Below, piece after piece: positions 2,697-21,765 of a stretch of 25,755 nucleotides of DNA. Position numbers and translations under genes: made by a program. The notes beneath the pieces were generated by a model. That model did no database searches, had not been told where the DNA came from, and worked only from the letters and a program-made list of their open reading frames with translations. The stretch comes from Desulfobacterales bacterium (GTDB taxonomy: Bacteria > Desulfobacterota > Desulfobacteria > Desulfobacterales > UBA5852): NCBI GenBank assembly GCA_050122915.1, contig JASFIA010000001.1:1-25755 (forward strand), given 5' to 3'. The stretch's first letter is position 1, and every line of letters starts with the position of its first letter.

Positions 2697-2750
2697 TTTG
2701 ACCGTTTTGTGAATTGGGTTGACAATTTTTGACTGTTTGTGATTGATTCA
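2697..2750 (+). promoter_or_regulatory. Promoter and phased direct-repeat operator of the DeoR cluster
   Basis: TGA cores at 2699, 2710, 2720, 2730, 2740 (units TTTGACCGTT, TGTGAATTGG, GTTGACAATT, TTTGACTGTT, TGTGATTGAT); consensus TTGACA at 2719-2724. Confidence 0.65.
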
Positions 2751-2787
2751 GGGAAACTTCCCGAAAGCGCCTCTGAAAGAACCGGTC

Positions 2788-3609
2788 ATGGATACCAAGA
2801 ACGCTTCTGGCCTCATACCGGCACAGCGTCGCAGCCTCATTCTCGAGCTGATACGCCAAAACGGAGTCATCTCCGTCCAAGAGCTCTCCGATGTCATCGA
2901 CGTGTCTCTGTCCACCATTCGCCGTGATCTTTCCTGGCTGGCAAGGGCGGGCGCCGTGCACCGGAGCCATGGAGGCGCTGCCCTGAAGACCCGCCAGGCA
3001 ACGACATTCGAACCGTCCCATCAGGTGTCTTCACGGGTCGCTCATCGAGAAAAAGCCGCCATTGGGAAACGGGCCGTCGAGCGGTTAGAGGCCCACCAGA
3101 GCGTCATCTTCGATTCCAGTTCCACCGTATATGAGGCAGCTCTCCAGGTTGTCCGGGAGGGGTTGCCACTGACCGCAGTGACCAACGATATTCGTATCGC
3201 AGGGCTGCTTGCCGAGTGCTCGTTCATAAAGCTCATCGTGAGCGGAGGATCCCTTCGCGAGGGATCCTGTACCCTGCTGGGGGAGCCGGGGGCGACCTTT
3301 CTGCGAAGACTTCACGTGGATGTTGCCCTCATCGGCATTCATGCCATAACCGACGCCACCCTCTGCGACACCTCCACGGACGTCGCCGAGGTCAAGCACC
3401 ACATGGCGGCGGCAGCCAAGCGGGTCCTGGTACTGGCGGATGCCGCCAAGTTCAATTCCCTGGCCTTCTGTGACGCGATCGATTTGAAAGCCGTGGATGA
3501 GATCATTACCGACCAGCGGCTCGATCCCGGGAGTCGCCGACGTCTTGAGAAGCAGGGCGTTCACCTGTGCATTGCCGTTCCGGAGGCAGACGATCCCGGC
3601 TCCAGATGA
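2788..3609 (+). CDS. DeoR/GlpR-family transcriptional regulator
   Basis: N-terminal HTH (RRSLILELIRQNG..SVQELS..VS.STIRRDL..L..RSHGGA), EK.AIG..A, IFDSSSTV, TNDI, D.A.IG, LADAAKF. ATG 2788 chosen because the GTG 2743 start lies inside the operator. Confidence 0.95.
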   Translation: MDTKNASGLIPAQRRSLILELIRQNGVISVQELSDVIDVSLSTIRRDLSWLARAGAVHRSHGGAALKTRQATTFEPSHQVSSRVAHREKAAIGKRAVERLEAHQSVIFDSSSTVYEAALQVVREGLPLTAVTNDIRIAGLLAECSFIKLIVSGGSLREGSCTLLGEPGATFLRRLHVDVALIGIHAITDATLCDTSTDVAEVKHHMAAAAKRVLVLADAAKFNSLAFCDAIDLKAVDEIITDQRLDPGSRRRLEKQGVHLCIAVPEADDPGSR

Positions 3610-3703
3610 CAGTCTCACCGGTTCGTGCGGGGGCGGCCGGTTCCTAGATTCTTTGACGTCCCCGGGCTTCCGGTTCGGCGCTACCGAAAAGGAGGATCAC
3701 CCA

Positions 3704-4549
3704 TTGGCTAAAAAACTCACCCGATTCGATCTTCAGCAAATGAAGGATAACGGACGAAGGGCCGTGTGGATGACGGCCTACGATTTCATCACCGCGAAGC
3801 TGGCGGAAGAGGCCGGCATGGACATGCTGCTGGTGGGCGACAGCCTCGGAATGGCCGTTTATGGCTATTCCGGCACCGTGCCCGTCACCATGGAACAGTG
3901 CATCTATCACACCGAAGCCGTGCGTCGAGCTGCGCCCGGCACCTTCGTGATCGGGGACATGCCCTTCGGGGCCTACCAGACCGGTGTCACGGATGCCTGC
4001 CGCAACGCCATCCGTTTTCACAAGGAAGCCGGTGTCGACTGCATCAAACTGGAAGGCGGCACTCGGGTGTCCGCAATCATCAGGGCGATCTCCGATGGCG
4101 GTATGCTGGTCATGGGCCATGTCGGGTTGACCCCTCAGAGCTCTGCCGCCATGGGCGGCTTCAGGGCCCAGGGGCGAACGGTTGACAGCGCTCGCGCCAT
4201 TATTGAAGATGCCAAGGCCGTCTGCGGCGCCGGGGCTTTTTCCGTGCTCGTAGAAGGGGTGCCGCCGGAAGTCACGGAGGTCATCCGGCGCGAGATTCCC
4301 ATCCCGGTGTACGGGATCGGGGCCGGTGACTGCGACGGCCAAGTCATGATCTGTTCGGACATTCTTGGACTATTCCAGGCGTTCACCCCAAAATTCGTCA
4401 AGCGATACGGAAACCTGGCGGAGGAATACCTGAAGGTGTTCACCGCATACGCGGATGACGTTCGAAGCGGAAAATTCCCCGGCGAATCTCACGTTTACCG
4501 CATGGCGGAGGGAGAAGCCGCAAAACTATCCCAAGAATGGAAACGATGA
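3704..4549 (+). CDS. panB: 3-methyl-2-oxobutanoate hydroxymethyltransferase (PanB/KPHMT family), possibly catabolic paralog
   Basis: TAYD, LLVGDSLGM, GDMPF, IKLEGG, GHVGLTPQ, GIGAG..DGQV, PKFVKRY; TTG start 3704 with AGGAGG RBS. Confidence 0.93.
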   Translation: MAKKLTRFDLQQMKDNGRRAVWMTAYDFITAKLAEEAGMDMLLVGDSLGMAVYGYSGTVPVTMEQCIYHTEAVRRAAPGTFVIGDMPFGAYQTGVTDACRNAIRFHKEAGVDCIKLEGGTRVSAIIRAISDGGMLVMGHVGLTPQSSAAMGGFRAQGRTVDSARAIIEDAKAVCGAGAFSVLVEGVPPEVTEVIRREIPIPVYGIGAGDCDGQVMICSDILGLFQAFTPKFVKRYGNLAEEYLKVFTAYADDVRSGKFPGESHVYRMAEGEAAKLSQEWKR

Positions 4550-5859
4550 CCATGGCCGACAGAGCCTTTTCCCTTGGATACGGAAAGGGGCGGATGGCGT
4601 TCGCCATCCCCGAGACCCATCTTCTCTACGAGCTGGTGGGTCGAAACCGCAGACCGCCCGCCGACCTGCCGACAGCCTACCGGCATGCCCTGGAACACCC
4701 CGTCGACAGCCCGCCCCTGAGGGAGATCGTCCGGCCGGGCGAGACCGTCGCCATCACAGTGAGCGACATCACCCGTGGGTGGCAGCGGAATCCCCTCACT
4801 CTGCCCATTCTCGTCGATTGCCTGAACGAGGCGGGGGTTTCCGACGATGACATCACCGTGATCATCGCCGTCGGCGCTCATCGGCAGAATACCCGCGACG
4901 AGGTCGTCGAACTCTGCAGCGAGGCGGTCTGCCACCGGGTGCGGGTCGTCAACCATGACGCCTGGGACTCGGCCAACATGGTCTCCTTCGGGAAAACGAG
5001 CCGGGGGACCGAGGTGGCTCTCAGTCGTATCGCCGTTGAGGCGGACCGGCTGATTCTGACCGGCGGTGTCATCTACCATTACATGGTGGGGTACGGGGGC
5101 GGACGCAAAAGCGTCATGCCGGGCGTCGCCTCCCTTAAAACCATCCAGCAGTGCCACATGTGGGCCATGGCCGGTGAGGTTGGAAAGGGCTCCAACCCCC
5201 TGGCAGCCAACATGAAAACCCGGGGCAACCCCGCTCACGAGGACATGATGGAGGTGGCGGCCTTTATCCAGCCCGACTTCATCGTCAACGTGGTGCCGAA
5301 CCTGGACGGTGACATCACCGGCATTTTTGCCGGGAACTGGGTGTCGGCCTGGTGGGAGGCAACGCGAATGGTCGACGGGATTTTCGGGGTGCCCATCAGG
5401 GAGCGGGCCGATATTGTCATCGCCTCGACCGGTGGCTATCCGAAGGACATCAACCTCTACCAGACACAGAAAACCATCGACAACGCCGTCTATGCTATGA
5501 AACCGGGGGGGGCGGCGATCATTCTGGCGGAGTGTCCCGACATCATGGAGCCCAGGGAGTTTTTCGACTGGTTCAACCATCCGTCGGCCCTGCAGTTGGA
5601 ACAAGCGGTCAGGGACCATTTTCTCATTTCCGGCTGGGTGGCCGTCCGCCAGCTGGAGTACTGCCAACAGGGCACCATTATTCTCGTGACGGAGGAGAAA
5701 AACCTTGAATTGGCGCGGCGGGCGGGGGTCATTCCGGTCACTACTACGGCGGAGGCCCTGCAATTGGCCTACGACAGCTGCGGCGCCGATCCCCCCAGTG
5801 TTACAGTCATGCCCCAGGGGGCGAACACTTTTCCCATCCTCGAGCCGACACCGGCCTGA
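4546..5859 (+). CDS. larA: LarA-family nickel-pincer-nucleotide racemase/epimerase (paralog 1)
   Basis: SDITR, AVGAHR, HYMVGYGGGRKSVMPG, downstream His (QQCH), DINLYQTQK, GGAAIILAEC; ATGA overlap with the panB stop. Confidence 0.9.
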   Translation: MTMADRAFSLGYGKGRMAFAIPETHLLYELVGRNRRPPADLPTAYRHALEHPVDSPPLREIVRPGETVAITVSDITRGWQRNPLTLPILVDCLNEAGVSDDDITVIIAVGAHRQNTRDEVVELCSEAVCHRVRVVNHDAWDSANMVSFGKTSRGTEVALSRIAVEADRLILTGGVIYHYMVGYGGGRKSVMPGVASLKTIQQCHMWAMAGEVGKGSNPLAANMKTRGNPAHEDMMEVAAFIQPDFIVNVVPNLDGDITGIFAGNWVSAWWEATRMVDGIFGVPIRERADIVIASTGGYPKDINLYQTQKTIDNAVYAMKPGGAAIILAECPDIMEPREFFDWFNHPSALQLEQAVRDHFLISGWVAVRQLEYCQQGTIILVTEEKNLELARRAGVIPVTTTAEALQLAYDSCGADPPSVTVMPQGANTFPILEPTPA

Positions 5860-5923
5860 TGATGGGGCGGATTACCGTGAGCGTTTTCCCGAACCCCAAA
5901 CCACTCAGGACAAGGAGGAATTC

Positions 5924-6928
5924 ATGGGCAAGCGAATGGCAGCAGCAGTGATTCTGGCAGTGACCCTGGCGCTGATGGCGGTGCCGGCATTGGCGGCGAC
6001 CGTCCTCAAACTGGGAACCTCAACCCAACCCTCCCACATCTACAACGTGGCGGCTGAACACTTTGCCAAGATCGTTGCCGAGAAATCCAATGGAGCCCTT
6101 GAGGTTCAGGTGTTCCCGGCAGCCCAGCTGGGCTCCGAGCGGGACATGGTGGAGGGACTTCAGTTGGGATCCCTTGAAATGACCCTGACCTCCACCGGCC
6201 CGTTGGGCAACTTCGTCCCCCAGGTCAAGCTGTTCAATCTTCCCTTTCTCTTCAAGGACCGGGAGACCTGCTACAAGGTGTTGGACGGCCCGGTCGGCAC
6301 ATCGATCGCCGACAAGTTTCCGGCGGTGGGTATCCGTTCTCTGGGCTGGTTTGAAAACGGGTTTCGAAACGTCACCAACTCCAAGCGGGCCATCATGGCT
6401 CCCACCGACATGGACGGCCTGAAAATCAGGGTGATGGAGGATGACGTCTTCATCCTGACCATGAAATCCCTGGGTGCCAGCCCCCTGCCCATGGCTTTTG
6501 GAGAGCTCTACACCGCACTGGAGCAGAAGACCGTCGATGCCCAGGAAAACCCTCTGGCCGTCATTCATTCCTCACGGTTCTTCGAGGTTCAGAAGTATTT
6601 GGCCATGACCGGTCATTTTTATTCGCCGGCGATGCTTCTCATCAGTGAAATCACCTGGAAGTCCCTGTCGCCCGAGCACCAGAGCATCATCACCGACGCC
6701 GCCGCTCAGGCGAGGGATTTCGAGCGGAAAATTTCCCTCGAGGCCGATCAGAAACTCGAAGCGGAGCTGAAGGCGGCGGGTATGACGGTCACCCATCCGG
6801 ACAAAACGCCTTTTGTCGAGGCGGTTGCAGGCGTCTACGAAAACCCCTCCGTGCTGAAGGCCATAGGCGGGGGGGATGCGGCGGAGGGACAAAAATTGAT
6901 CGAGGCCGTCCGCAACGCATCGAACTAA
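5924..6928 (+). CDS. dctP: TRAP transporter periplasmic solute-binding protein (DctP family)
   Basis: Signal peptide (..AVPALA), QLGSERDMVEGLQLG, LFNLPFLF, GLKIRVM, MAFGELYTALEQKTVDAQENP; AAGGAGG RBS. Confidence 0.95.
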   Translation: MGKRMAAAVILAVTLALMAVPALAATVLKLGTSTQPSHIYNVAAEHFAKIVAEKSNGALEVQVFPAAQLGSERDMVEGLQLGSLEMTLTSTGPLGNFVPQVKLFNLPFLFKDRETCYKVLDGPVGTSIADKFPAVGIRSLGWFENGFRNVTNSKRAIMAPTDMDGLKIRVMEDDVFILTMKSLGASPLPMAFGELYTALEQKTVDAQENPLAVIHSSRFFEVQKYLAMTGHFYSPAMLLISEITWKSLSPEHQSIITDAAAQARDFERKISLEADQKLEAELKAAGMTVTHPDKTPFVEAVAGVYENPSVLKAIGGGDAAEGQKLIEAVRNASN

Positions 6929-6964
6929 TTCCCATCACGCTATGTCAGCATGACAGCGCAGATA

Positions 6965-6996
6965 CCGGTCCAGACCGAATCCTACGGCTGGACCGG
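6965..6996 (+). other. Intercistronic stem-loop after dctP, probable mRNA-stabilising structure
   Basis: ccggtccag (6965-6973) pairs with ctggaccgg (6988-6996), with an inner ccg/cgg stem; no U-tract. Confidence 0.45.
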
Positions 6997-7044
6997 CGAT
7001 GCGAGCCGATGGGTTTCACCTTTTGCGATCGGGAACCTTGACCC

Positions 7045-7533
7045 ATGCAAACCCTTCTGTCGTGGATGGACCGAATGATCAATTGGGCGCTGGCGGTCCT
7101 GATGGCTGCCATGGTGGTGGTCATCGCTGCTCAGGTCTGGTACCGATTCGTCTTAAACGATCCCTTATCCTGGTCTGAGGAACTGGGGCGCTATCTCTTT
7201 GTCTGGATTTCTTTTATGGGGGCCGCCGCCGGCGTCCGTTACCAGGTGCATCTGGGGATCGATCTGCTCCAGAAGGTCCTGCCCCCCAATGCCTACAGGA
7301 TCATGGTCATCCTGATGAACGTCATCATTCAGGTGTTTCTGGTGACCGTCATCTACTGGGGATTCAAGATCCTGGGGATCATCCGGTTTCAGACCAGCGC
7401 CTCGATGAATGTCTCCATGCTCTATCCCTACCTGGCCGTACCGGTTGGGTGCATTTTCATGCTGATCAATTCCTTGAGGGTATCCGCCGCCGCCTTCCGG
7501 GGCCGTCGTCTGGACCGGGAGGTGATTCTATGA
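7045..7533 (+). CDS. dctQ: TRAP transporter small permease
   Basis: Four hydrophobic segments; QVWYRFVLNDPLSWSEELGRYLFVWISFMGAA, HLGID. Confidence 0.93.
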   Translation: MQTLLSWMDRMINWALAVLMAAMVVVIAAQVWYRFVLNDPLSWSEELGRYLFVWISFMGAAAGVRYQVHLGIDLLQKVLPPNAYRIMVILMNVIIQVFLVTVIYWGFKILGIIRFQTSASMNVSMLYPYLAVPVGCIFMLINSLRVSAAAFRGRRLDREVIL

Positions 7534-8807
7534 CCGTCATTCTGTTCGCCGTCCTCCTTATCTGCTTCGTTGTGGGCATGCCCATCGCCTTTTCCCTCGG
7601 GGTGGCTTCGGTGGCCACCCTCCAGTTCGGTTCCAATCTGCCACTGACCCTCGCGGCACAGCGCCTCTTCACGGGCACCGACTCCTTTCCCCTGATGGCG
7701 ATCCCCTTTTTCATGCTGGCCGGCGAGCTGATGGAGTCCGGAGGGATTTCTCGGCGGCTATTTGATTTCGCCCATGCCCTGGTGGGATTCGTTTTTGGCG
7801 GACTGGCGATGGTAGCGGTGGTCGCGGCCATGTTCTTCGCGGGCATCTCCGGCGCCGCTGCGGCCGACACCGCAGCGGTCGGAGCGGTATCTATCCCGGC
7901 CATGATCCGAAACGGCTACCAGAAAGGATTTGCCGCCGCCGTTCAGGCGGCGGGGGGGTCCATCGGTGTCATCATTCCTCCCTCCATACCCATGATTATC
8001 TTTGGCGTGGTGGGCGGCGTTTCCATCGGCAAGATGTTTATGGGCGGGTTTATCCCCGGCGCCTTGATCGGCGGTGGACTCATGCTCACCAGCTATTTCA
8101 TGGCCAGAAGGGCCGGCTATCGGAAAGAATCCTTCCTGGGATTTCGGCAAATCGTGCGGACCTTTTTGGGGGCGATTTGGGCCCTGCTCATGCCCATCAT
8201 CATTCTGGGGGGGATTCTTGGAGGCATTTTCACGCCCACGGAGGCGGCGGTGGTGGCCGCCCTCTATGGTCTTGCCGTGGGGTTCTTCATCTATAGAGAA
8301 CTCCGGATTAAGGATCTTCCCCGCATCTTCGCCAAGGCGGCCATCTCTACCTCCACGGTGATGCTGCTCATCGCCACCGCCAACATCTTCGGCTGGATTT
8401 TGACCGCGGAGCGGGTGCCCCAGAACGTCGCCGCCTATCTGGTGACCCTCACGGCTTCCAAGCACGTCCTTTATGCCTTGATCCTGGCCTGTCTCCTCGT
8501 GGTGGGAACCTTTATGGAGACATCGGCGTCCCTCATCATTCTGACCCCTGTCTTCCTGCCGGTGGTAGAACAGTTCGGGATCGATCCGGTCCACTTTGGC
8601 GTAATCATGGTGACGGCTCTGGCCATCGGCATGCTGACGCCGCCCCTGGGCATCTGTCTTTTCATATCGTGCAACATCGCTAGGATCGAACTCTCGGAGA
8701 TCATCCGATTTATTTTGCCCTTTCTGGCCATTATGATCGGCCTGCTGGTGCTGATGACCTACGTTCCCGAAATTATTCTTTTCGTCCCTAATCTCTTAGG
8801 AGAATAA
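7530..8807 (+). CDS. dctM: TRAP transporter large permease
   Basis: FPLMAIPFFMLAGELM, FAGISGAAAAD, IIPPSIPMI, GIFTPTEAA, DPVHFG, GMLTPPLG; ATGA overlap with dctQ. Confidence 0.96.
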   Translation: MTVILFAVLLICFVVGMPIAFSLGVASVATLQFGSNLPLTLAAQRLFTGTDSFPLMAIPFFMLAGELMESGGISRRLFDFAHALVGFVFGGLAMVAVVAAMFFAGISGAAAADTAAVGAVSIPAMIRNGYQKGFAAAVQAAGGSIGVIIPPSIPMIIFGVVGGVSIGKMFMGGFIPGALIGGGLMLTSYFMARRAGYRKESFLGFRQIVRTFLGAIWALLMPIIILGGILGGIFTPTEAAVVAALYGLAVGFFIYRELRIKDLPRIFAKAAISTSTVMLLIATANIFGWILTAERVPQNVAAYLVTLTASKHVLYALILACLLVVGTFMETSASLIILTPVFLPVVEQFGIDPVHFGVIMVTALAIGMLTPPLGICLFISCNIARIELSEIIRFILPFLAIMIGLLVLMTYVPEIILFVPNLLGE

Positions 8808-8812
8808 CCCCT

Positions 8813-10087
8813 ATGCCCCAGGTCACCTTCCCATTCGGTGGTGAAAGCCTGTCCGTCGATGTTCCGGACCGAAATCTGGCTGAAGTGTTGGCCCCCAAGC
8901 CTTCGAGATCCATCGACGACCTGCCGGCGGCCATTTCGGCTGCCCTCGACAGCCCCATCGACCAACCGCGGCTTGAGGAGTGGGTTCACTCCAGCGACAG
9001 GGTGCTGATCGTCAGCGACGACATTACCCGTTTGACGCCCTGCGATCGCATCATTCCGCCCCTGCTCGACCGGTTGAATGCTGCCGGGGTGCCGGACGAT
9101 CGGATTTCTTGCATCATGGCCCTGGGAACCCACCGATACATGACCGAGTCCGAGATGGTTCAAAAAGTCGGAGAAACGGTTTGCCGGCGGATTCTCGTCT
9201 TCAATCACGAATGGCGGGATCCGAAGGCTCTGGCGGACCTGGGTGCCTCCGAGCAGGGCACGCCGCTGGTGGTAAACCGGGCGGCGGTGGAGGCGGAAGT
9301 CGTCATTGGATTGGGGGCAATCGTTCCTCACCACATCCCGGGTTTTTCCGGTTCCTCCAAGATTATCCAGCCAGGTATCAGCGGCTCCCGGACCACAGCG
9401 GAAACCCATCTGCTATCCTGCGGCGGCGGCGGGGACTCCTTTCTTGGCGCCGAGGACAATCCGGTGCGTCGGGACATGGACGAGATGGCCGATCGGGTCG
9501 GGATGAAAACCATTTTCAACGTGGTCATGGACAGTCAGGGGGCTGTGGTAGGCGTCTTTTTCGGAGAGATGCGCGGCGCATTCCGGAAGGGGGTGGAACT
9601 GGCCAGGGAGATCTACGGCATCCCCTATCGCGAAGTGCCCGATGTGGTGATCGCCAATGCTTATCCTTGCGAGCTCGATTTCTGGCAGTCCCACAAGGCC
9701 CAGTATCCGGCCCAGCGGATGATCCGTCCCGGCGGCACTATCATCGTCTGCACGCCGGCGCCGGAAGGGGTGAGCCCTGTGCACACGGAACTGCTTGAAT
9801 TTACGGCATGGTCTTCCACGGATATCAAAGCGGCCTATCGGAAAGGCCGGATTTCCAACGGGGTGGCCTGCGCACTGGCCGTCGCATGGGCCATGGTGAG
9901 GGAAAAGGCATCTGTCATTCTTTTTTCTCCAGGCATCCCGGAACCGGACAAGCGCCGGTTGGGGCACACCCACGCACCATCCCTGGAATGGGCGATGGCG
10001 GAAGCCATTCGCCGGCAGGGCAGGGATGCACGGATCTCCGTGCTGACCCATGCCCCGGATATGCTGCCCATTGGCCCGATGGCTTGA
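8813..10087 (+). CDS. larA: LarA-family nickel-pincer-nucleotide racemase/epimerase (paralog 2)
   Basis: SDDITR.TP, ALGTHR, PHHIPGFSGSSKIIQPG, AETH, LDFWQSHK, PGGTII..TPAPEG. Confidence 0.9.
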   Translation: MPQVTFPFGGESLSVDVPDRNLAEVLAPKPSRSIDDLPAAISAALDSPIDQPRLEEWVHSSDRVLIVSDDITRLTPCDRIIPPLLDRLNAAGVPDDRISCIMALGTHRYMTESEMVQKVGETVCRRILVFNHEWRDPKALADLGASEQGTPLVVNRAAVEAEVVIGLGAIVPHHIPGFSGSSKIIQPGISGSRTTAETHLLSCGGGGDSFLGAEDNPVRRDMDEMADRVGMKTIFNVVMDSQGAVVGVFFGEMRGAFRKGVELAREIYGIPYREVPDVVIANAYPCELDFWQSHKAQYPAQRMIRPGGTIIVCTPAPEGVSPVHTELLEFTAWSSTDIKAAYRKGRISNGVACALAVAWAMVREKASVILFSPGIPEPDKRRLGHTHAPSLEWAMAEAIRRQGRDARISVLTHAPDMLPIGPMA

Positions 10088-10108
10088 AAATAAAGGCACC
10101 TGAGCCTT

Positions 10109-11386
10109 GTGAACGATAACAATATCCATGTGGCGGTTGTGGCCGATGACCTGACCGGTGCGGCCGACACCGGCGTTCAATTCTGTTCCGTTGCGGAGCC
10201 GTTTGATCTGCTGCCGTGGCAGCCCCGGGAGTGGTCCGGCGGCTTCTCCGGGGCAGTGAAGGGTTTGGCCGTTTTTACCAACTCCCGGCACGATTCACCC
10301 CCAGCAGCCGCTCGCAAAGTGCGTCGGGTTGCCGATCTCATCAGGAGGCATGCCCCCAGGGTCGTCTACAAAAAAATCGACTCCTGTCTGAGGGGCAATC
10401 TCGGTTCTGAAATCGATGCGCTCCTTGAGTCCCTTGAGTGCCCGGTGAGTTTCATCGCCCCGGCGCTGCCCGGTCAGGAGCGGACCACGGAAAACGACGT
10501 TCATCGGGTTCGAGGCGTCCCCGTGGCGGAGAGCGAGATCGCCCTCGACCCCCTTTGCCCGGTATCGGAGTCCCGGCTGTCCCGGCTGCTGGCCGCCCAG
10601 AGCCGGTATCCTGTCGGGCGGGTGGGGCTGGAGGATGTCGCCGCCGGCTCGGAGCGGCTTCGGGCGGCCATCGGTTCCCGGATGGCCGAGGGGTGCCGGC
10701 ATATCGCTTTCGATGCCACCGAAACCGTCCATCTGGATGCCATCGCAGCCGCAGCCACCCGGTTTTTTACAGGCGCCCTTTTGGTCGGATCCGCCGGTCT
10801 TGCCGCCAGCCAGGCGTCCTGGCTGGGAGAAAAGACCCGGACATTGGCGTCACTCCCTACCCGGCGACTTCAGCGGATGCTTTGGGTTTGCGGGTCGGCA
10901 ACGACGGTGTCGCTCCGTCAGGCGGAGGCGCTCAGGGACCGTTCGGTGGTCGCCCCGATCGTCTTGCCGGCAGCCATGCTGGCTGATGCCGAGAGCGCAT
11001 CGGGTCGGAAAGGGTTTGTCGATCAAGTGATCGCCGGCTGGTCCCAGGGGGTTCGGATGATTTTGATCGAGCCCCTCGGAAAGGGGCCACATGCTGATCC
11101 AGCACTGGTGGTTGCCGGGCTCGGGGCGATTGTGGCCGATATCGTCCGCCTCACGTCGCCGGAAGGCCTGTTTTTGACCGGAGGCGATACCGCCGAGGCT
11201 GTCTGGCGCTGCCTCGGGGCTGCCGCCATCCGCCTTGAAGGAGAGGTCTTGCCTGGCGTGATTCGAGGGCGCTGGATTGGAGGCGCCATGAACGGCGGGA
11301 CAGTGATCACCAAGGCCGGGGCCTTCGGCGACCCGGAAACCCTGTTAAATCTCTATAGCCAATCCGTGAGAGGGGTGACGCAATGA
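10109..11386 (+). CDS. Four-carbon acid-sugar kinase (DUF1537/DUF1357; DtnK/DenK type)
   Basis: ADDLTGAADTG, YKKIDSCLRGNLGSE, PALP..ERTT, LTGGDTA, ITKAGAFG; adjacent to pdxA; GTG start. Confidence 0.9.
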   Translation: MNDNNIHVAVVADDLTGAADTGVQFCSVAEPFDLLPWQPREWSGGFSGAVKGLAVFTNSRHDSPPAAARKVRRVADLIRRHAPRVVYKKIDSCLRGNLGSEIDALLESLECPVSFIAPALPGQERTTENDVHRVRGVPVAESEIALDPLCPVSESRLSRLLAAQSRYPVGRVGLEDVAAGSERLRAAIGSRMAEGCRHIAFDATETVHLDAIAAAATRFFTGALLVGSAGLAASQASWLGEKTRTLASLPTRRLQRMLWVCGSATTVSLRQAEALRDRSVVAPIVLPAAMLADAESASGRKGFVDQVIAGWSQGVRMILIEPLGKGPHADPALVVAGLGAIVADIVRLTSPEGLFLTGGDTAEAVWRCLGAAAIRLEGEVLPGVIRGRWIGGAMNGGTVITKAGAFGDPETLLNLYSQSVRGVTQ

Positions 11387-12411
11387 GCACAGGCCACCGT
11401 CCGATTCTGGGCATAACCATGGGAGATCCCGGAGGGATCGGCCCTGAAATTTGCGCCAAAGCACTCAGGGACGATGCCATCTACGATATCTGCCGCCCCC
11501 TCGTTGTCGGTGATGCCGGCGTTATGGGTAATGCCGTGGACTTCTGCGGGCTGGGACTCGATGTCTACTCGGTGGTGAACCCCACTGACGGGGCTTACCG
11601 CAAGGGACGAATCGACGTCCTGGACTTGACCAACATGCCGATGGCCGAGCTACGGCATAAGACAGTGACCCCGCTCCAGGGCAAGGCATCCTTCGAGTAC
11701 ATCGCGCGGGCGATCGCCCTGGCCCTTGCCGGTGACATCGACGGCACGGTGACGGGACCGATCAACAAGGCCTCCATCAACGCAGCCGGGTTCCATTACG
11801 CCGGTCACACCGAGATCTACGCCCATCTCACCCGAACCCGGGACTACTCCATGATGTTGGTCGAAGGGGGGTTCCGGGTCACCCACGTGTCCACCCATGT
11901 CTCATTGAGGGAGGCCTGCGATCGGGTGAAGAAGGAGCGGGTAGAGACGGTTGTCGACCTCACCCATGACGCCTTGACCCGCCTGGGTATTCCCAGGCCG
12001 CGAATCGCCGTTGCCGGCCTCAATCCCCACTGCGGGGAAGGGGGGCTCTTTGGAACCGAGGACGACCGGGAGATCGCCCCGGCAGTGGCGGCGGCCCGAG
12101 AAAAGGGACGGCTGGTCCAGGGGCCTCTACCGGCCGACACCGTGTTCTCGAAAATGCGGGGAGGCATGTTCGACGCCGTGGTGGTCATGTATCATGACCA
12201 GGGCCATATCCCCACGAAGCTGGTGGGCTTCCAGTACGACGACAACACCGGCACATGGGGCCAGATGGCGGGCGTCAACGTCACCCTGGGACTCCCCATC
12301 ATCCGCACTTCCGTGGATCACGGCACCGCCTTTGGAAAGGCCGGTGAGGGCCGTGCCAACCCCCAGTCCATGATCGAAGCGGTTAAGCTTGCCGCCCGAA
12401 TGGCCCAGTGA
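11383..12411 (+). CDS. pdxA: PdxA-family dehydrogenase, PdxA2 type (4-phospho-D-threonate/erythronate 3-dehydrogenase, decarboxylating)
   Basis: GITMGDPGGIGPE, TGPINK, GHTE, LNPHCGE, MYHDQGHIP, VNVTLGLPIIRTSVDHGTAF; ATGA overlap with the kinase stop. Confidence 0.93.
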   Translation: MSTGHRPILGITMGDPGGIGPEICAKALRDDAIYDICRPLVVGDAGVMGNAVDFCGLGLDVYSVVNPTDGAYRKGRIDVLDLTNMPMAELRHKTVTPLQGKASFEYIARAIALALAGDIDGTVTGPINKASINAAGFHYAGHTEIYAHLTRTRDYSMMLVEGGFRVTHVSTHVSLREACDRVKKERVETVVDLTHDALTRLGIPRPRIAVAGLNPHCGEGGLFGTEDDREIAPAVAAAREKGRLVQGPLPADTVFSKMRGGMFDAVVVMYHDQGHIPTKLVGFQYDDNTGTWGQMAGVNVTLGLPIIRTSVDHGTAFGKAGEGRANPQSMIEAVKLAARMAQ

Positions 12412-12446
12412 AAAGCCGACGTGGCCCGCATTACAGGGGAGACACC

Positions 12447-14114
12447 ATGCGCAGCCGGAACATCCTAAGCCGCCCGGAATGGAGCATCAACCGGGCCTAC
12501 TACAAATCCATGGGTTACACGGATCTGGATCTCGACCGTCCCCTTATCGGCATCGCCAATGCATGGAGTACGACCGTGCCCGGCCACATCAACTTGAGAC
12601 AAGTGGCCGAATCCGTGAAGGCCGGTATCTGGAGCACTGGCGGAACTCCTGTGGAATTCGGCGTGATCGGTGCCTGCGACGGCATCGCCGAAGGTCACGC
12701 GGGAATGAGATACATCCTCCCCACCAGGGATGTCATCGCCGACAGTATCGAACTCATGGTTCAGGCCCATCAGTATGATGGTGTGGTTTTGCTGGGTTCC
12801 TGCGATAAAATCGTACCGGGTATGCTTATGGCCGCCGCCCGGCTTGATCTTCCGGCCATCCTGGTCAATGGCGGACCGATGTTGGGGGGGCCAGAGATTG
12901 CCGGCCGGATCTCGGATTCCACTTCCATTATCGAAGCCGTGGGTCGCCTAAAAAAGGGGGAAATTACCGAGGCGGATCTGGCCGGCATGGAGGATGCCTG
13001 TGCACCCACCTGCGGTTCCTGCTCCTTTCTTGGAACCGCCAACACGATGGGATGCATTGCAGAGGCACTGGGCATGTCTCTTACCGGAAGTGCAGTGATT
13101 CCAGCCACCCACGCCCGTCGCATGCACGTGGCCCAGGCCAGCGGCCGGGCCATCACGAGACTGGTCAAGGACGGTGTCGGCGCCCGACAGATTCTTACCG
13201 GCGAGGCCATCGAAAACGCCGTTCGCCTCACTGCCGCCATCGGCGGGTCCACCAACGCGGCCCTTCATATCCCGGCTATTGCCTACGAAGCCCACGTTGC
13301 ATTCGATATCGGGATGTTCGACAGGATCAGTCGGACAACGCCCCTGATCGCCAAGATGAACCCTGCCGCCGCCGTCAATGTGATCGATTTTTACGCTTCC
13401 GGCGGCGTGCCTGCGGTCATGGCGGAGCTGATGCCTCTGCTCAACACAGAGGCTCTGACGGTAACCGGAATGACCATGGGGGAAAATCTGGCCGGCTGCC
13501 GTTCCCCGAACGATGCGGTGATCCGAACCCTCGAAGCGCCCTTCAGTGCCACCGGGGGACTGGCGGTTCTCTACGGGAGCCTCGCCCCCCAGTCGGCCGT
13601 GACGAAACCGGCGGCCATTCGAAGCGACATGTTGATCTTTTCCGGACCGGCCAGGGTCTTCGACTCAGAGCAGCAGGCCAACACGGCCATCCTGCAAGGA
13701 GCGGTGATACCGGGGGACGTTGTGGTGATCCGCTATGAGGGGCCCAAAGGAGGGCCGGGAATGCCCGAGATGTTCAAGGCCATGAAGTTGATACACGGCT
13801 TGGGACTGTCCGATCGGGTCGCCCTCGTCACCGACGGCCGGTTTTCAGGAACCAACAATGGGTGCTGCGTCGGCCATATCTCTCCGGAGGCCATGGAGGG
13901 TGGCCCCATTGCCCTGGTGCAAGACGGCGACACCATCACCATCGACATCCCCGGCAAACGACTTGATTTGACGGTATCGGAAGCCGACCTCGATGCCCGC
14001 CGCTCCCGGTGGGAGCGGCCGGCGCCCCGGGTCTCGGAGGGCTACCTTTACCTCTACAGTCGACTGGCCGAGTCTGCCGACAAGGGAGCCATTATCCGAA
14101 ACCGGGCCGGTTGA
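12447..14114 (+). CDS. ilvD: IlvD/Edd-family Fe-S dehydratase (dihydroxy-acid or sugar-acid dehydratase)
   Basis: PGH..L, CDGIA.GH.GM, GSCDKIVPG, CGSCSFLGTANTM, GGSTNA, RYEGPKGGPGMPEM, TDGRFSG, GHISPE; ATG 12447 follows a GGGGAG RBS. Family is secure, substrate is not. Confidence 0.88.
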   Translation: MRSRNILSRPEWSINRAYYKSMGYTDLDLDRPLIGIANAWSTTVPGHINLRQVAESVKAGIWSTGGTPVEFGVIGACDGIAEGHAGMRYILPTRDVIADSIELMVQAHQYDGVVLLGSCDKIVPGMLMAAARLDLPAILVNGGPMLGGPEIAGRISDSTSIIEAVGRLKKGEITEADLAGMEDACAPTCGSCSFLGTANTMGCIAEALGMSLTGSAVIPATHARRMHVAQASGRAITRLVKDGVGARQILTGEAIENAVRLTAAIGGSTNAALHIPAIAYEAHVAFDIGMFDRISRTTPLIAKMNPAAAVNVIDFYASGGVPAVMAELMPLLNTEALTVTGMTMGENLAGCRSPNDAVIRTLEAPFSATGGLAVLYGSLAPQSAVTKPAAIRSDMLIFSGPARVFDSEQQANTAILQGAVIPGDVVVIRYEGPKGGPGMPEMFKAMKLIHGLGLSDRVALVTDGRFSGTNNGCCVGHISPEAMEGGPIALVQDGDTITIDIPGKRLDLTVSEADLDARRSRWERPAPRVSEGYLYLYSRLAESADKGAIIRNRAG

Positions 14115-14304: not shown

Positions 14305-16077
14305 ATGGGCCGACCCGTCGCCGTTGCCATCGCCGTTCTGTGGATGGTTATTTGTTTCTCCACCCGTGCCATCGAAGCAGGCGTCCCTCCGGCAGACGTG
14401 ATTCTATACAACGGCCGGATTCACACAATGAACGATCGTCAGCGCCAGGCGGCCATGATTGCCGTGGTCGGGGATCGCATCGTCCATGTGGGAGGGGCGG
14501 GGGATGTGGACCGGTGGCGGGGGGACGCCACCCAACTGATCGATCTCGAGGGCCGAACCGTGATCCCGGGACTGATCGAAAGCCACGGGCATCTCCTCGC
14601 ACTGGGGCGTTCTCGAATGATTTTGGATCTAAGCGGGGCCCATAACTTTGACGACCTCGTCCGGCGGGTGGCATCGGCGGTTGAGGCAACCCCTTCCGGG
14701 CAATGGATCCTTGGGGCGGGATGGCATCAGAGCAAATGGGATCCGCCGCCGGATCCGGCGGTCAACGGGTTCCCTGTCCATCGCGTCCTGAGCCAGGTCA
14801 GTCCGTCTCATCCGGTGTTTCTTACCCATGCAAGCGGTCACGCCGGACTGGCCAACGCCATGGCCATAGCCCTTGCGGGCATTACGCCCCATACCGTGGT
14901 CGACGGCGATGGAGAAATCATTCGGGAGCCAGACGGAACGCCCACGGGCGTCTTTACCGAGCGTGCACAGGAGCTGATCCGCCGGGCCATACCCGAGGCC
15001 ACGCCGGAGCGGAATCGACAGGCCCTCTCCCTGGCCATTTCAGAGGCCCTCGAAAACGGGATCACGAGCTTCAGGGATGCCGGCTCCAGCAGGGAGGATA
15101 TCGACCGATACCGATCCTTCTTGTCCGAAGGCCGCCTGGGGGTGAGGGTATGGGTGATGGTGGACGGGAGTGACAGCGATCTGGTGGAGGAATGGTTGGA
15201 ACGGGGGCCCGAGATCGACTCGGGGAACCGATTCCTGACCATTCGGGCCTTCAAGCTGTTTGCCGATGGGGCCCTGGGTTCCCGGGGCGCATGGCTTCTG
15301 TCTCCTTACGCCGACCGGCCCGAGCACTCGGGCCACAGCCTGATCGCCATGGAAGACCTTTATCGACTCTCGGCGGCCGCATTGAGGAGGGGGTTTCAGC
15401 TCTGCGTCCATGCCATCGGAGACCGGGCCAACCGGGAGGTGTTGAACCAGTTCGAGCGCGCCTTCACATCTTATCCCGCCAATTCACAAGACCACCGTTT
15501 CCGGATCGAGCACGCCCAGCACATCGATCCCTCGGATATCCCGCGTTTTGCCAGGATGGGGGTGATCGCCTCGGTTCAAGGAATTCATTTCTCTTCGGAT
15601 CGACCCTGGGCCATCGACCGCTTGGGCAGGGACCGAATCAGTGACGGGGCCTATCCATGGCAATCGCTATTGGCTTCGGGGGCTGTGGTGGTCAACGGTA
15701 CGGATGCCCCGGTGGAGCCCATAAATCCCATCGCCTCCTTCTACGCGTCGGTTACCCGGAAAACCCTCGACGGTCGACCCCAGAACGGTTTCGAGCCTTA
15801 CCAGCGGATGAGCCGTCATCAGGCTTTGAAGGCCTATACCCTGGATGCGGCCTTTGCCGGATTCGAGGACTCGGTCAAGGGATCCATCGAGGTCGGAAAG
15901 CTGGCGGATTTCACCGTGCTTTCCCGGGACATCATGACCATTGCCGAGGACAGGATTCTCGGCACACGGGTCGAGATGACCATTATCGGGGGGCGTGTGG
16001 CCTATTCCAGGGCGGAGCGACGAGGGGCTTCCGTCGCCCCCACGCCGTCGACATCGAGGGTTACGAGATATCCATGA
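14305..16077 (+). CDS. Exported metal-dependent amidohydrolase (amidohydrolase_3 / YtcJ-like)
   Basis: Signal-peptide-like N-terminus; NGRIHTM, DLEGRTVIPGLIESHGH, KLFADGALGSRGA, HAIGDRA, RIEHAQ, GTDAPVE, KGSIEVGKLADF. Confidence 0.9.
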   Translation: MGRPVAVAIAVLWMVICFSTRAIEAGVPPADVILYNGRIHTMNDRQRQAAMIAVVGDRIVHVGGAGDVDRWRGDATQLIDLEGRTVIPGLIESHGHLLALGRSRMILDLSGAHNFDDLVRRVASAVEATPSGQWILGAGWHQSKWDPPPDPAVNGFPVHRVLSQVSPSHPVFLTHASGHAGLANAMAIALAGITPHTVVDGDGEIIREPDGTPTGVFTERAQELIRRAIPEATPERNRQALSLAISEALENGITSFRDAGSSREDIDRYRSFLSEGRLGVRVWVMVDGSDSDLVEEWLERGPEIDSGNRFLTIRAFKLFADGALGSRGAWLLSPYADRPEHSGHSLIAMEDLYRLSAAALRRGFQLCVHAIGDRANREVLNQFERAFTSYPANSQDHRFRIEHAQHIDPSDIPRFARMGVIASVQGIHFSSDRPWAIDRLGRDRISDGAYPWQSLLASGAVVVNGTDAPVEPINPIASFYASVTRKTLDGRPQNGFEPYQRMSRHQALKAYTLDAAFAGFEDSVKGSIEVGKLADFTVLSRDIMTIAEDRILGTRVEMTIIGGRVAYSRAERRGASVAPTPSTSRVTRYP

Positions 16078-19681: not shown

Positions 19682-20272
19682 ATGACTTCATTACGATATA
19701 TGGCTGTCGGCGCTTTATTCTGTATACTATCTTTGTCGGCGGGAGCCACGGTTTCCTCCTTCGCGGCGGAGCGTTACCAGGTCGATCCATCCCATGCCTA
19801 CGCCATGTTCCGAGTCAAACACTTGGGAATCGGCTATTCCTACGGCCGCTTCGAGGAGCCTACCGGCAACTTTACCATCGATGAGGCCGTGCCGGAAAAC
19901 AGCGCCATCGAAATGCGGTTGGATGCCAGCAAAGTGGATACCGACGTGGAAAAAAGGGACAAGCATCTGCGGAGCCCTGATTTTTTCGACGTGGAAAAGC
20001 ACCCCCAAATCACCTTCAAGAGCACGTCATTCAAGAAGGTGGATGACACCCGTTTCGAGGTGTCCGGAGACCTCACGCTTCTTGGGACGACACGACCGAT
20101 AACGGTAACCGCCGTGGATACAGGGTCTGGAAAGGATCCGTGGGGCAATTACCGACGGGGATTTGAAACCGTTTTCACCATCAAGCGAAGCGATTTCGGA
20201 ATGACGTTCATGTCCGATGGGGTCAGCGACGAGGTGGAGATCACCATCAGCGTGGAAGGTATCCGTCAGTAG
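19682..20272 (+). CDS. YceI-family periplasmic lipid/polyisoprenoid-binding protein
   Basis: Signal peptide; YQVDPSH...FRVKHLG...GRF, VDTDVEKRDKHLRSPDFFDVEKHP.ITFKS, GDLTLLG, IKRSDFGM; AAGGAG RBS. Confidence 0.95.
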   Translation: MTSLRYMAVGALFCILSLSAGATVSSFAAERYQVDPSHAYAMFRVKHLGIGYSYGRFEEPTGNFTIDEAVPENSAIEMRLDASKVDTDVEKRDKHLRSPDFFDVEKHPQITFKSTSFKKVDDTRFEVSGDLTLLGTTRPITVTAVDTGSGKDPWGNYRRGFETVFTIKRSDFGMTFMSDGVSDEVEITISVEGIRQ

Positions 20273-20280
20273 GCAGACCC

Positions 20281-21765
20281 ATGTGCAGACAACAACTATC
20301 TGCAAAAGGAGCGATGGGCGGATGGCGTCTCGGAGGGGCCTCGTTGTGGCTTCTCGCCGTGCTGATGCTGCTCATCCCGGCATCGGTTTGCGCCGACGGA
20401 CCATATGAGCAACTCATCGTCTTCGTTCACTCGGGAGCGTCCGATGTAGACAGAACCTTCCGCGAAACCCAGCTGCCCGACATCCGGAAAGCGGCCGACG
20501 AGATGGGCGTCTCGTTTCATTTGGTCGAAGTGGCTGGCGGCGTCCCGGAAACGGTGACCATTACCCCGCTCATGGTCTACCAGAACTACCGGGGACGATC
20601 GATTTACCAGGGGCGAACCACCACCCCGTCTCGACTCCGCCATTTCATCCGCACTTCCCGTTTCATACCCCAAGGGGAGGATCCCAACCGCCGGGAGACC
20701 ATTCCGGTATGGGACGCCGGGCGCTCCAAGATCTGGGCGCCTGTAAAAATTTCGTCGGTAACCGGCACCCCTCCCGCCTCATACGATGACGGGGCCTTCA
20801 AATCGGAAGCATTTGAGAGCATCATGAAGGGTTTGGATCGGTTTGCGCTTCGATCCAAGGTGTCATTGGGTCGGGGAGATCGTGGATTCTACATGGATTT
20901 CTACCCCTGGCGGTCACCGGACGGCACCTTGTTTCTCTCCCTCGCCCTGTATTCTCAGTTTCACTGCAAGGAGCCGGTGTACGTGAAAAAAAAAGATCCC
21001 CTGGTCGGACCATGGGAAGAACGGGACAAGCTGTTCCGGGAGGCCGGACGGCTCATGGAGGAAGCCGTCGCTAAACAAATCCGGCTCCCTCAGTCCGGCG
21101 ATGCCTTTGACCCCGTCGACCGAGGGGTTCCTGTAAAGGACTGGAATGCCATCGGATTCCCTCTGCCCCCAAAACCCCCCGGCACTGTCGGGCATTCGGC
21201 CCCGGCCCTCCCTCTTGGAAACCACTGGACGGTGGGGCCCCCCGGTCCGGGGGAGCCGCCGATCATCCAGTTTCGGTTCCCTGCGCCATTGGACAACTAT
21301 GCGGGGGAGGTGACCGCCGCCTCGGGTGCCTTGACGCTTTCCGACGGGTTGAACCTGGACGGCGCCTCCGGTTATATAGAGGTGGATACACGGTCCACCA
21401 TCACCATGGGGGAGCCTACCCTGGATGAAGCCATTCGCGGCAGTCTACTCCTATACACCAAGCAATATCCGACTTCACGATATGACATTTCCCGTGTGAC
21501 CAGCGGGGACAAGATTGCCTACGGGCAACTGTCGCCCGGCGTGGTTTCCGGAACCTTTACCCTGAAGGGCAAGAGGGTTCCGCTTGAGTGCCCTGCCGAA
21601 TTCGAACCGATCATCGGCGAGGAGGGAAAACCCCGCCTGATCGTTCGAACCTCGTTTTCGATAGATCTGAGGGAATTCGACATCGAGGGCGCCGAGGGTC
21701 CCGCACCGGCCCGACATACCCTTTTATTGGATGTGAACCTTTTCCTGCATCCACGAATCCAATAG
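20281..21765 (+). CDS. Exported multidomain hypothetical protein: thioredoxin-like N-terminal region, unknown middle domain, C-terminal YceI-like domain
   Basis: 494-aa ORF 8 nt after yceI; signal peptide (LWLLAVLMLLIPASVCA); C-terminal G.IEVDTRSTITMGE..LD..IR...L....YP..GTFTLKG..FSIDLREFDI resembles YceI. Start may be ATG 20314. Confidence 0.75.
   Translation: MCRQQLSAKGAMGGWRLGGASLWLLAVLMLLIPASVCADGPYEQLIVFVHSGASDVDRTFRETQLPDIRKAADEMGVSFHLVEVAGGVPETVTITPLMVYQNYRGRSIYQGRTTTPSRLRHFIRTSRFIPQGEDPNRRETIPVWDAGRSKIWAPVKISSVTGTPPASYDDGAFKSEAFESIMKGLDRFALRSKVSLGRGDRGFYMDFYPWRSPDGTLFLSLALYSQFHCKEPVYVKKKDPLVGPWEERDKLFREAGRLMEEAVAKQIRLPQSGDAFDPVDRGVPVKDWNAIGFPLPPKPPGTVGHSAPALPLGNHWTVGPPGPGEPPIIQFRFPAPLDNYAGEVTAASGALTLSDGLNLDGASGYIEVDTRSTITMGEPTLDEAIRGSLLLYTKQYPTSRYDISRVTSGDKIAYGQLSPGVVSGTFTLKGKRVPLECPAEFEPIIGEEGKPRLIVRTSFSIDLREFDIEGAEGPAPARHTLLLDVNLFLHPRIQ

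Follow-up and report, generated by a model that had tools for sequence, protein, structure and literature searches.

A conserved operon of sulfate-reducing bacteria joins a PanB paralog and two LarA-type enzymes to a predicted tetronate kinase and dehydrogenase

What pathway would bring together a PanB paralog, two LarA-type nickel-pincer enzymes, an importer of the TRAP type, a DUF1537 kinase, a PdxA2-type dehydrogenase and an IlvD paralog? This question is raised by a 25,755-nucleotide stretch of contig JASFIA010000001.1 (hereafter the window), which belongs to a 70%-complete Desulfobacteraceae-like metagenome-assembled genome (MAG) from wetland or sediment samples. At positions 2788-14114 the window carries ten genes, all on the plus strand, in the order deoR, panB, larA1, dctP, dctQ, dctM, larA2, a DUF1537 kinase gene, a pdxA2-type gene and an ilvD paralog. 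Profile searches with Pfam and NCBIfam bore out the co-directional genes and the families that had been named in an earlier note made from the sequence alone (the original prediction), and a direct reading of the sequence recovered the three ATGA overlaps that it had placed at 4546, 7530 and 11383; the remaining intergenic gaps measure 5 to 116 bp. The operon is real and is widely conserved in sulfate-reducing bacteria. From its gene content we read it, with modest confidence, as a DeoR-repressed operon for the uptake and anaerobic breakdown of C4 acids hydroxylated at positions 2, (3) and 4, most likely tetronates, which would proceed in two branches served by a shared TRAP importer.

Conservation of the arrangement was assessed in a LarA2-based scan with one genome per species, which returned 80 loci that were scored by tblastn with all window proteins. 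Our counts refer to the 33 species-level loci that possess full flanks and a LarA2 ortholog of at least 60% identity, and they derive from tblastn because simple longest-ORF calling gave shadow ORFs in GC-rich loci. Beside larA2, pdxA is present in 30 of the 33 loci and the kinase gene in 26, while panB is found in 22 and panB together with larA1 in 19. The whole core of panB-larA1-TRAP-larA2-kinase-pdxA is kept in 19 loci, with protein identities of 66-92%, and because this synteny holds across species-level genomes the arrangement exceeds chance. An ilvD gene accompanies only six of these 19 full clusters. Conservation next to the kinase and pdxA genes, on which the original prediction had staked panB, larA and ilvD alike, is thus found for panB and for both larA genes in many genomes, and for ilvD in a minority.

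Carriers of the core are Desulfobacterales, Desulfobulbales, Desulfarculales, Dethiosulfatarculus and one Myxococcota MAG. More distant larA2-related genes (45-48% identity) stand beside pdxA, and in some loci also beside the kinase gene, in Negativicutes, Peptococcaceae, Acidobacteriota, Spirochaetaceae and Chloroflexota, where they are accompanied by GntP or TRAP importers and by RpiR or sigma-54 regulators. This distribution therefore resolves the operon into two modules, a widespread trio of larA2, kinase and pdxA and a panB-larA1 pair.

The gene families, the intact catalytic residues, the paralogy, the conserved synteny and the presence of cofactor genes are established in this analysis, and the pathway that we propose is built upon them. 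The TRAP system would import the acid (erythronate or threonate). In the first branch, LarA2 would equilibrate the C2 epimers of the acid, the DUF1537 kinase would phosphorylate O4, and the PdxA2-type enzyme would oxidise C3 and decarboxylate, yielding dihydroxyacetone phosphate (DHAP) and CO2; because LarA2 would invert C2, a single kinase/dehydrogenase pair could use both C2 epimers. In the second branch, LarA1, which is of the LarAH10 type, would set the C2 configuration, after which the IlvD paralog of the window would convert the acid to 4-hydroxy-2-oxobutanoate, a step that a housekeeping dihydroxy-acid dehydratase (DHAD) or a GlcD-type 2-hydroxy-acid dehydrogenase would take in genomes without ilvD. 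The PanB paralog would then act in a reverse aldol-type reaction that transfers the C4 hydroxymethyl group onto tetrahydrofolate (THF), giving pyruvate (or hydroxypyruvate) and methylene-THF, the latter entering the C1 pool. The substrates, the direction of the PanB reaction and the allocation of stereoisomers to branches are what we infer here; directing the D-series to the first branch and the L-series to the second is reasonable on stereochemical grounds, because the natural substrate of PdxA matches D-threonate at both centres.

The substrate class is suggested by the kinase, the dehydrogenase and the binding protein. The kinase gene (10109..11386, plus strand) encodes an acid-sugar kinase with SBD_N and NBD_C domains (PF07005, 179 bits; PF17042, 68 bits) for which DtnK, the D-threonate kinase, is the top NCBIfam model (NF047819, 221 bits against a cut-off of 450) and whose solved relatives are 4XFM and 4XFR; it reaches 111 bits with the OtnK model, for which the cut-off is 350, and so is not of the OtnK type. 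The adjoining gene, whose start overlaps the kinase gene by ATGA (11383..12411, plus strand), was assigned by Pfam and encodes a predicted decarboxylating dehydrogenase. Its best solved relatives are the D-threonate-4-phosphate dehydrogenase 6E85 (282 bits) and the PdxA2 structure 2HI1 (267 bits), ahead of E. coli PdxA (about 188 bits), which upholds its original designation as PdxA2-like; with the D-threonate-4-phosphate dehydrogenase equivalog NF002891 it scores 300 bits, the cut-off being 583. DctP, the TRAP solute-binding protein (5924..6928, plus strand; Pfam), has a signal peptide, and its closest solved relatives are 4P9K/4PAK, 4PDH, 4PDD, 4P47 and 4NQ8. We take the ligand to be D-erythronate in 4PDH and 4PDD and pantoate in 4PAK and 4NQ8. 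A study of the binding protein IseP names 4P47, an open form, among the solved homologues and describes closed homologues that hold pantoate or erythronate, the entry codes of which it does not state (PMC11668362).

The chemistry of the two modules narrows the substrate further. PanB chemistry needs a 2-oxo acid that bears CH2OH on C3, and PdxA2 chemistry needs a secondary C3 alcohol that adjoins CH2-O-phosphate and lies two carbons from the carboxylate. Taken with the relatives of PdxA and DctP, these requirements therefore call for a four-carbon chain hydroxylated at C2, (C3) and C4. Tetronates, which arise from ascorbate and sugar breakdown, suit every enzyme of the operon, whereas apionate, pantoate and 2,4-dihydroxybutanoate suit the PanB branch only. 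Pantoate was rejected as a substrate of the kinase and PdxA, its C3 being quaternary.

Each module has its own LarA enzyme. LarA1 (4546..5859, plus strand) belongs to the LarAH10 family, whose members racemise or epimerise 2-hydroxy acids and depend on the nickel-pincer nucleotide (NPN), with 594 bits against the NF052525 cut-off of 540. LarA2 (8813..10087, plus strand), the predicted NPN-dependent epimerase that partners the kinase and PdxA, matches Lar_N, is no LarAH10 member (280 bits) and falls below the cut-offs of all NCBIfam LarAH subgroups. LarA1 keeps the equivalents of D72, R75, H108, H174, K184, H200, Q295 and K298 and has Y and M at positions 175/176, and LarA2 likewise retains the catalytic and NPN-binding residues, its H and I at 175/176 agreeing with none of the published LAR, MAR, HGR or GntE signatures. 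Across 26 LarA1 and 48 LarA2 orthologs, His108/His174, Lys184/His200 and Arg75/Gln295/Lys298 are conserved, and panB lies directly 5' of larA1 in every examined LarA1 ortholog of at least 60% identity. The source genome can make the nickel-pincer cofactor, since its contig C27 encodes larE-larB-larC, and it holds a third LarA.

In the published work on the LarA superfamily and on LarAH10 of Megasphaera elsdenii (PMC7583248, PMC11770544), LarA enzymes epimerise C2 of 4-deoxy-threonate/erythronate, and LarAH10 takes 2,4-dihydroxybutyrate and C3-branched acids. In common with the superfamily, the window enzymes have catalytic histidines, a lysine that binds NPN and residues that bind the carboxylate, and LarA2 departs from it at positions 175/176. 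The published LarAH10 differs from LarA1 in having a gene context without PanB, PdxA or DUF1537, and neither the gene-context tables of the superfamily paper, for any group, nor the supplement of the 2024 paper lists PanB, PdxA or DUF1537 neighbours.

The window ilvD gene (12447, or from a GTG at 12408, to 14114, plus strand) encodes a DHAD paralog of what we call the alpha type, which exceeds the TIGR00110 cut-off (674 bits against 618) and retains the cluster-binding cysteines in CDK and CGSC motifs. It is not the housekeeping copy, since a second IlvD on contig C52 of the source genome scores 787 bits and is 49% identical to it. Housekeeping IlvD motifs read CAGMFTANSM and GRFSGGTRGA, for comparison with GMRYILPTRD, CGSCSFLGTANTM and GRFSGTNNGC in the window copy, which thus has a TNN insert motif. 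A beta type linked to PanB (L022, L025, L026, L038, L102 and L144) has GMRMPMPSRE and WGPGAC.LMGTAN, and in both types Gly substitutes for the housekeeping Phe before TAN. In the nearest relative (L005, 92% LarA2 identity), only two ilvD fragments lie between pdxA and an amidohydrolase gene (L005:13560-14130); they correspond to window 12447-12477 (about 30 nt, the gene start) and 12834-13117 (about 285 nt, internal) at 86% nucleotide identity, and the second still contains the stretch that encodes CGSCSFLGTANTM. This decayed remnant implies that ilvD was ancestral in the lineage and is now decaying there, with the remaining nine genes preserved. The pathway as originally read is thus partly supported: the conserved panB and larA genes and the PdxA2-like dehydrogenase speak for it, as does our finding that the cluster PanB is a paralog, and ilvD as a core member is not upheld: its presence in six of 19 full clusters and its decay in the nearest relative make the dehydratase accessory. 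One alpha IlvD, unlinked to the cluster, occurs in the genome of L019, and six other loci have in its stead a GlcD-type FAD dehydrogenase and a CCG iron-sulfur partner, an alternative route to a 2-oxo acid.

A side view of alpha IlvD comes from Pelosinus, where it follows IclR-DmpF-DmpG in two loci (L075 and L077), DmpG/DmpF being a 4-hydroxy-2-oxoacid aldolase and its partner aldehyde dehydrogenase. In one of them, from a Pelosinus fermentans MAG (L077:1-12641), IclR-DmpF-DmpG-IlvD(alpha)-MFS stands directly beside RpiR-kinase-pdxA-larA2-GntP, a layout that, judged by gene order, mirrors the two modules of the window with DmpFG replacing PanB(-LarA1). The DmpFG linkage is the best indirect evidence that alpha IlvD may make a 4-hydroxy-2-oxo acid. 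A DHAD has been described as active on L-threonate-type (2R,3S) acids, in a synthetic step from threonate to 2-oxo-4-hydroxybutyrate (PMC10079672). The window copy resembles such IlvD/Edd dehydratases in its DHAD-type sequence and cluster-binding cysteines, and differs from them as a paralog with the changed motifs given above; no natural tetronate dehydratase pathway was described in the literature searched. Separately, a Desulfopila MAG (G407, the carrier of L037) has a further contig, C372 (L155), on which a second pdxA (70%) adjoins an alpha ilvD with two in-frame stops and which also bears a second panB; duplication of the cluster, another strain or a pseudogene might explain this.

These same enzymes could be read in favour of a different substrate. 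The architecture would be unchanged but the acid a C3-substituted or 3-deoxy relative of a tetronate, such as D-apionate, 3-C-methyl-tetronate, 2,4-dihydroxybutanoate or pantoate, with IlvD and PanB removing a single hydroxymethyl group, or two of them, from a 2-oxo acid that is branched. Apiose-rich plant walls are to be expected in wetland or sediment, from which the source genome comes. LarAH10 alone among the compared LarA enzymes was shown to act on 2,3-dihydroxyisovalerate and 2-hydroxy-3,3-dimethylbutyrate, the IlvD paralog passes the cut-off of a DHAD equivalog whose natural substrates are tertiary C3 alcohols, the natural PanB product has a quaternary C3, and pantoate is reported in solved TRAP binding proteins related to DctP (PMC11668362). 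Yet a PdxA2-type enzyme cannot oxidise the tertiary C3 of apionate or the quaternary C3 of pantoate, which would leave the most conserved trio of the operon without a role, and D-apionate, being 2R already, would not call for an epimerase. Of the known apionate genes, ApnO, OiaK and OiaC/T, none occurs here, and ApnO is KARI-like rather than PdxA-like; an initial assignment of ApnO to the PdxA family, which would have favoured apionate, was dropped in light of its structure paper (PMC13753588). We consider such a C3-substituted or 3-deoxy substrate unlikely.

PanB is the enzyme on which the second branch of the proposed tetronate pathway depends. The panB gene (3704..4549, plus strand), which overlaps larA1 by ATGA, encodes a member of the 3-methyl-2-oxobutanoate hydroxymethyltransferase (KPHMT) family that we propose to be a catabolic retro-hydroxymethyltransferase. 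It matches its family over the full length (Pfam and NCBIfam), scores 285 bits against the TIGR00222 cut-off of 208 and retains the catalytic motifs VGDS, DMPF, KLEGG, GHxGLTPQ and VEGVP. In E. coli, PanB acts promiscuously and reversibly as a 2-oxoacid/formaldehyde aldolase; it takes many 2-oxo acids, pyruvate among them, and both forms and cleaves the corresponding 4-hydroxy-2-oxo acids (PMC10127515), which accords with the proposal. In a tree of 45 PanB sequences, 23 of the 25 cluster copies form one clade (SH-aLRT 100%) and the other two, from Desulfarculaceae, branch just outside it; all lie, together with cluster-linked PanBs of Firmicutes, within a bigger paralog clade, outside of which fall E. 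coli PanB and a panE-linked copy (L097). The cluster copy therein differs from biosynthetic KPHMT not only in clade but also in changes near the motifs (e.g. GQVMICSD vs E. coli GQILVMHD), in the lack of a panC, panD or panE neighbour in the window and in its place within a repressor-controlled transport operon. In Desulfosarcina the top-scoring panB adjoins panE and shares about 46% identity with the cluster copy. Carrier genomes hold one to six panB genes, and those with a panB-panE housekeeping copy also retain the cluster panB.

Related panB operons have arisen repeatedly and independently elsewhere without kinase or pdxA, arranged as ilvD-panB-TRAP (L102), ilvD-panB-larAH10-like (L144) and panB-larAH10-like-TRAP (L143), and a further locus (L104) reads IclR-panB-x-larAH10-like-SBP. 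Even at PanB identities as low as 45-51%, panB is still paired with larAH10, in company with TRAP or ABC importers and IclR regulators. A very divergent PanB with a long tree branch was also seen in the genome of L018 (L107:4035-9005), where the genes ahead of it encode TctA, a xylose-isomerase-fold protein and a DUF1537 kinase without a match among the known kinase models, a further combination of PanB with DUF1537.

Could the cluster PanB nevertheless be biosynthetic? The pathway would then consist of the TRAP importer, LarA2, the kinase and PdxA2 only, PanB (and IlvD) would be linked biosynthetic enzymes, and LarA1 would perform an unrelated racemisation. Both PanB and IlvD exceed the cut-offs of biosynthetic equivalogs, IlvD followed by PanB is the usual biosynthetic order, and the cluster copy is the sole panB found in genomes G001 (which also has panC), G408 and G410 and in the source genome, at 70% completeness of its assembly. 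A role restricted to biosynthesis sits poorly, however, with the overlap of panB and larA1 behind a sugar-type repressor, with the upkeep of the panB-larAH10 pairing in unrelated transporter and regulator contexts, with the retention of the cluster copy despite a panB-panE copy, and with the separate, higher-scoring IlvD of the source genome. We regard this explanation as quite improbable.

Still less probable is one linear pathway in which LarA1 and LarA2 bring every stereoisomer to the form that the kinase and PdxA2 use, LarA1 for example inverting C3 through a 2-oxo intermediate, and PanB has a side role in detoxifying or salvaging a 2-oxo by-product. Such a scheme would account for the absence of a 2-oxo-acid-generating step among the five core enzymes, for the dispensability of ilvD and for two LarAs that both have the full catalytic set yet differ in pocket residues. 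Against it, we know of no LarA-family C3 epimerase, and because panB-larAH10(-ilvD) modules occur without kinase or pdxA, the panB-larAH10 pair works on its own. A serial pathway with PanB acting on the PdxA product was rejected chemically, since DHAP is not a 2-oxo acid.

The two-branch tetronate pathway, although the reading that we favour, has several observations weighing against it. With ilvD mostly missing, the second branch has no encoded 2-oxo-acid-forming step in most genomes, and no alpha IlvD was found anywhere in the genomes of L005, L029 and L018. The kinase and PdxA both remain under their equivalog cut-offs. The pantoate-binding relatives of DctP, the tolerance of LarAH10 for C3-branched acids and the DHAD-like IlvD suit a C3-branched substrate equally well. 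Where the cluster panB is the only one found (G001, G408 and G410), it may serve biosynthesis as well, or solely, and the RNA evidence, which we describe below, is fragmentary.

The wider distribution of PanB paralogs raises a more general possibility, which we put forward tentatively: that those of strictly anaerobic Desulfobacterota and Negativicutes constitute an unrecognised family of catabolic, THF-dependent retro-hydroxymethyltransferases, which here, with two new nickel-pincer epimerases, would make every tetronate stereoisomer usable. Such enzymes would cleave 4-hydroxy-2-oxo acids to pyruvate-type 2-oxo acids and methylene-THF, passing the C1 unit straight into the Wood-Ljungdahl/C1 pool with no release of formaldehyde. 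A DHAD-like dehydratase would supply the 4-hydroxy-2-oxo acids from tetronates, GlcD-type dehydrogenases would do so from 2,4-dihydroxy acids and, in ectoine-type clusters, transaminases from hydroxylated amino acids. Formate-THF ligase (FTHFS) is encoded on contig C256 of the source genome, and a gene for this enzyme adjoins two Firmicute clusters (L066 and L061). The gene neighbourhoods of the PanB paralogs point to enzymes that act on imported acids and pass the C1 unit to folate.

Two further contexts of PanB paralogs resemble clusters for ectoine/hydroxyectoine utilisation, in Desulfosarcina and Dethiosulfatarculus (L103:7366-14610 and L100:5838-9431). One has the order IclR-panB-unknown-aminotransferase-DoeA-like hydrolase and, farther along, a gene for a DoeB2-like deacetylase, and the other EutB, two genes without assigned function and panB; in them PanB may take part in an anaerobic form of compatible-solute breakdown. 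The cultured Dethiosulfatarculus sandiegensis SPR, whose genome contains L030, has six panB genes above the equivalog cut-off, and its cluster is complete, with ilvD and a GlcD-type dehydrogenase in addition. Among other cultured carriers, Pelosinus or Sporomusa strains have the trio together with IlvD-DmpFG.

How much of this is new? To our knowledge, the kinase/PdxA2 and the oxidative Otn pathways are the only described tetronate routes. The former, for D-threonate and D-erythronate (DtnK/DenK with a 4-phospho-tetronate dehydrogenase), was reported by the Gerlt laboratory in 2016, as cited in PMC13753588. Going by that citation, the window is alike in its DeoR regulator, in a kinase translationally coupled to a PdxA2-like dehydrogenase and in a TRAP importer with a binding protein related to solved erythronate and pantoate binders; it differs, on the same basis, in a kinase and dehydrogenase that score below the equivalog cut-offs and in the addition of two nickel-pincer epimerases and of paralogs of PanB and IlvD, all of them absent from the described pathways. 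The oxidative LtnD/DenD-OtnI-OtnK-OtnC route has the substrate class and the DHAP end product in common with our proposal and different genes, none of which is in the window. Its absence had been part of the original prediction, and this holds for the window and does not extend to the genome as a whole: the 3.4-kb contig C430 of the source genome (G000) encodes a second DUF1537 kinase, which is a true 3-oxo-tetronate kinase OtnK (C430:1940-3200, L146:1489-2763; NF043035, 549 bits against a cut-off of 350), so the oxidative route may coexist with the operon.

Full-text literature searches found no paper that joins LarA with DUF1537, PdxA or PanB, or PanB with tetronate catabolism, in agreement with the original prediction, whose author knew of no description of this combination of enzymes. 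The known part is thus the kinase/PdxA2 tetronate system, and the new part, which is credible and testable, comprises the catabolic PanB claim and two new LarA functions. If true, the proposal would assign natural substrates to two orphan nickel-pincer (LarA-type) enzymes, the LarAH10 family included, and would give the textbook biosynthetic enzyme PanB its first catabolic role, as a formaldehyde-free, folate-coupled C-C lyase. It would also constitute a natural counterpart of the engineered conversion of threonate to 2-oxo-4-hydroxybutyrate in synthetic C1/C2 assimilation. For annotation, it would caution against reading panB or ilvD calls in Desulfobacterota as signs of pantothenate or valine biosynthesis, which they often are not.

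The operon is headed by a predicted promoter/operator (2697..2750, plus strand), recognised by reading of the sequence, in which direct repeats with TGA cores overlap -35-like TTGACA/TTGACC elements and a promoter-like match lies at 2698-2726. The repeat units TTTGACCGTTTTGTGA ... TTTGACTGTTTGTGA overlap the TTGACA-like hexamer. That there is one operator, as first noted, is borne out by comparable repeat arrays 5' of deoR in ten orthologous loci (L005, L008, L009, L011, L015, L018, L029, L032, L033 and L056), which together form a phylogenetic footprint of a probable regulatory site. The repressor gene itself (2788..3609, plus strand) encodes HTH_DeoR and DeoRC domains (Pfam), scores nearly equally with the NCBIfam models GlpR, AgaR and YgbI (152-175 bits, every one under its cut-off) and is retained in 11 of the 33 full-flank loci. 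The TRAP permease subunits are the small DctQ (7045..7533, plus strand; Pfam) and the large DctM (7530..8807, plus strand; Pfam and NCBIfam), whose gene overlaps dctQ by ATGA.

Contigs from wetland metatranscriptomes (at least 99% identity) cover parts of deoR, panB, larA1, dctP, dctQ, dctM, the kinase gene, pdxA and the amidohydrolase gene downstream. Their depth is very low and the contigs are short; one spans the deoR-panB spacer, none of them joins two coding regions, and the interior of ilvD is uncovered. A single low-depth contig (run X20) omits 82 nt within the kinase gene (window 10582-10665); a strain variant or an assembly error is a likelier cause of this than RNA processing.

The genes that flank the operon are unrelated to it, with an acyltransferase gene upstream on the opposite strand and, downstream, genes for an Amidohydro_3 protein, a protease and others. 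The Amidohydro_3 protein (590 aa; window 14305-16077) is encoded 190 bp 3' of the operon on the same strand, and its gene is syntenic in the nearest relative only (L005, 84% identity) and absent from the other clusters, a restriction that places it probably outside the operon. Farther on (window 19682-21765) lies a YceI gene and, 8 nt behind it, a gene for a 494-aa protein whose sole recognised part is a C-terminal YceI-like domain.

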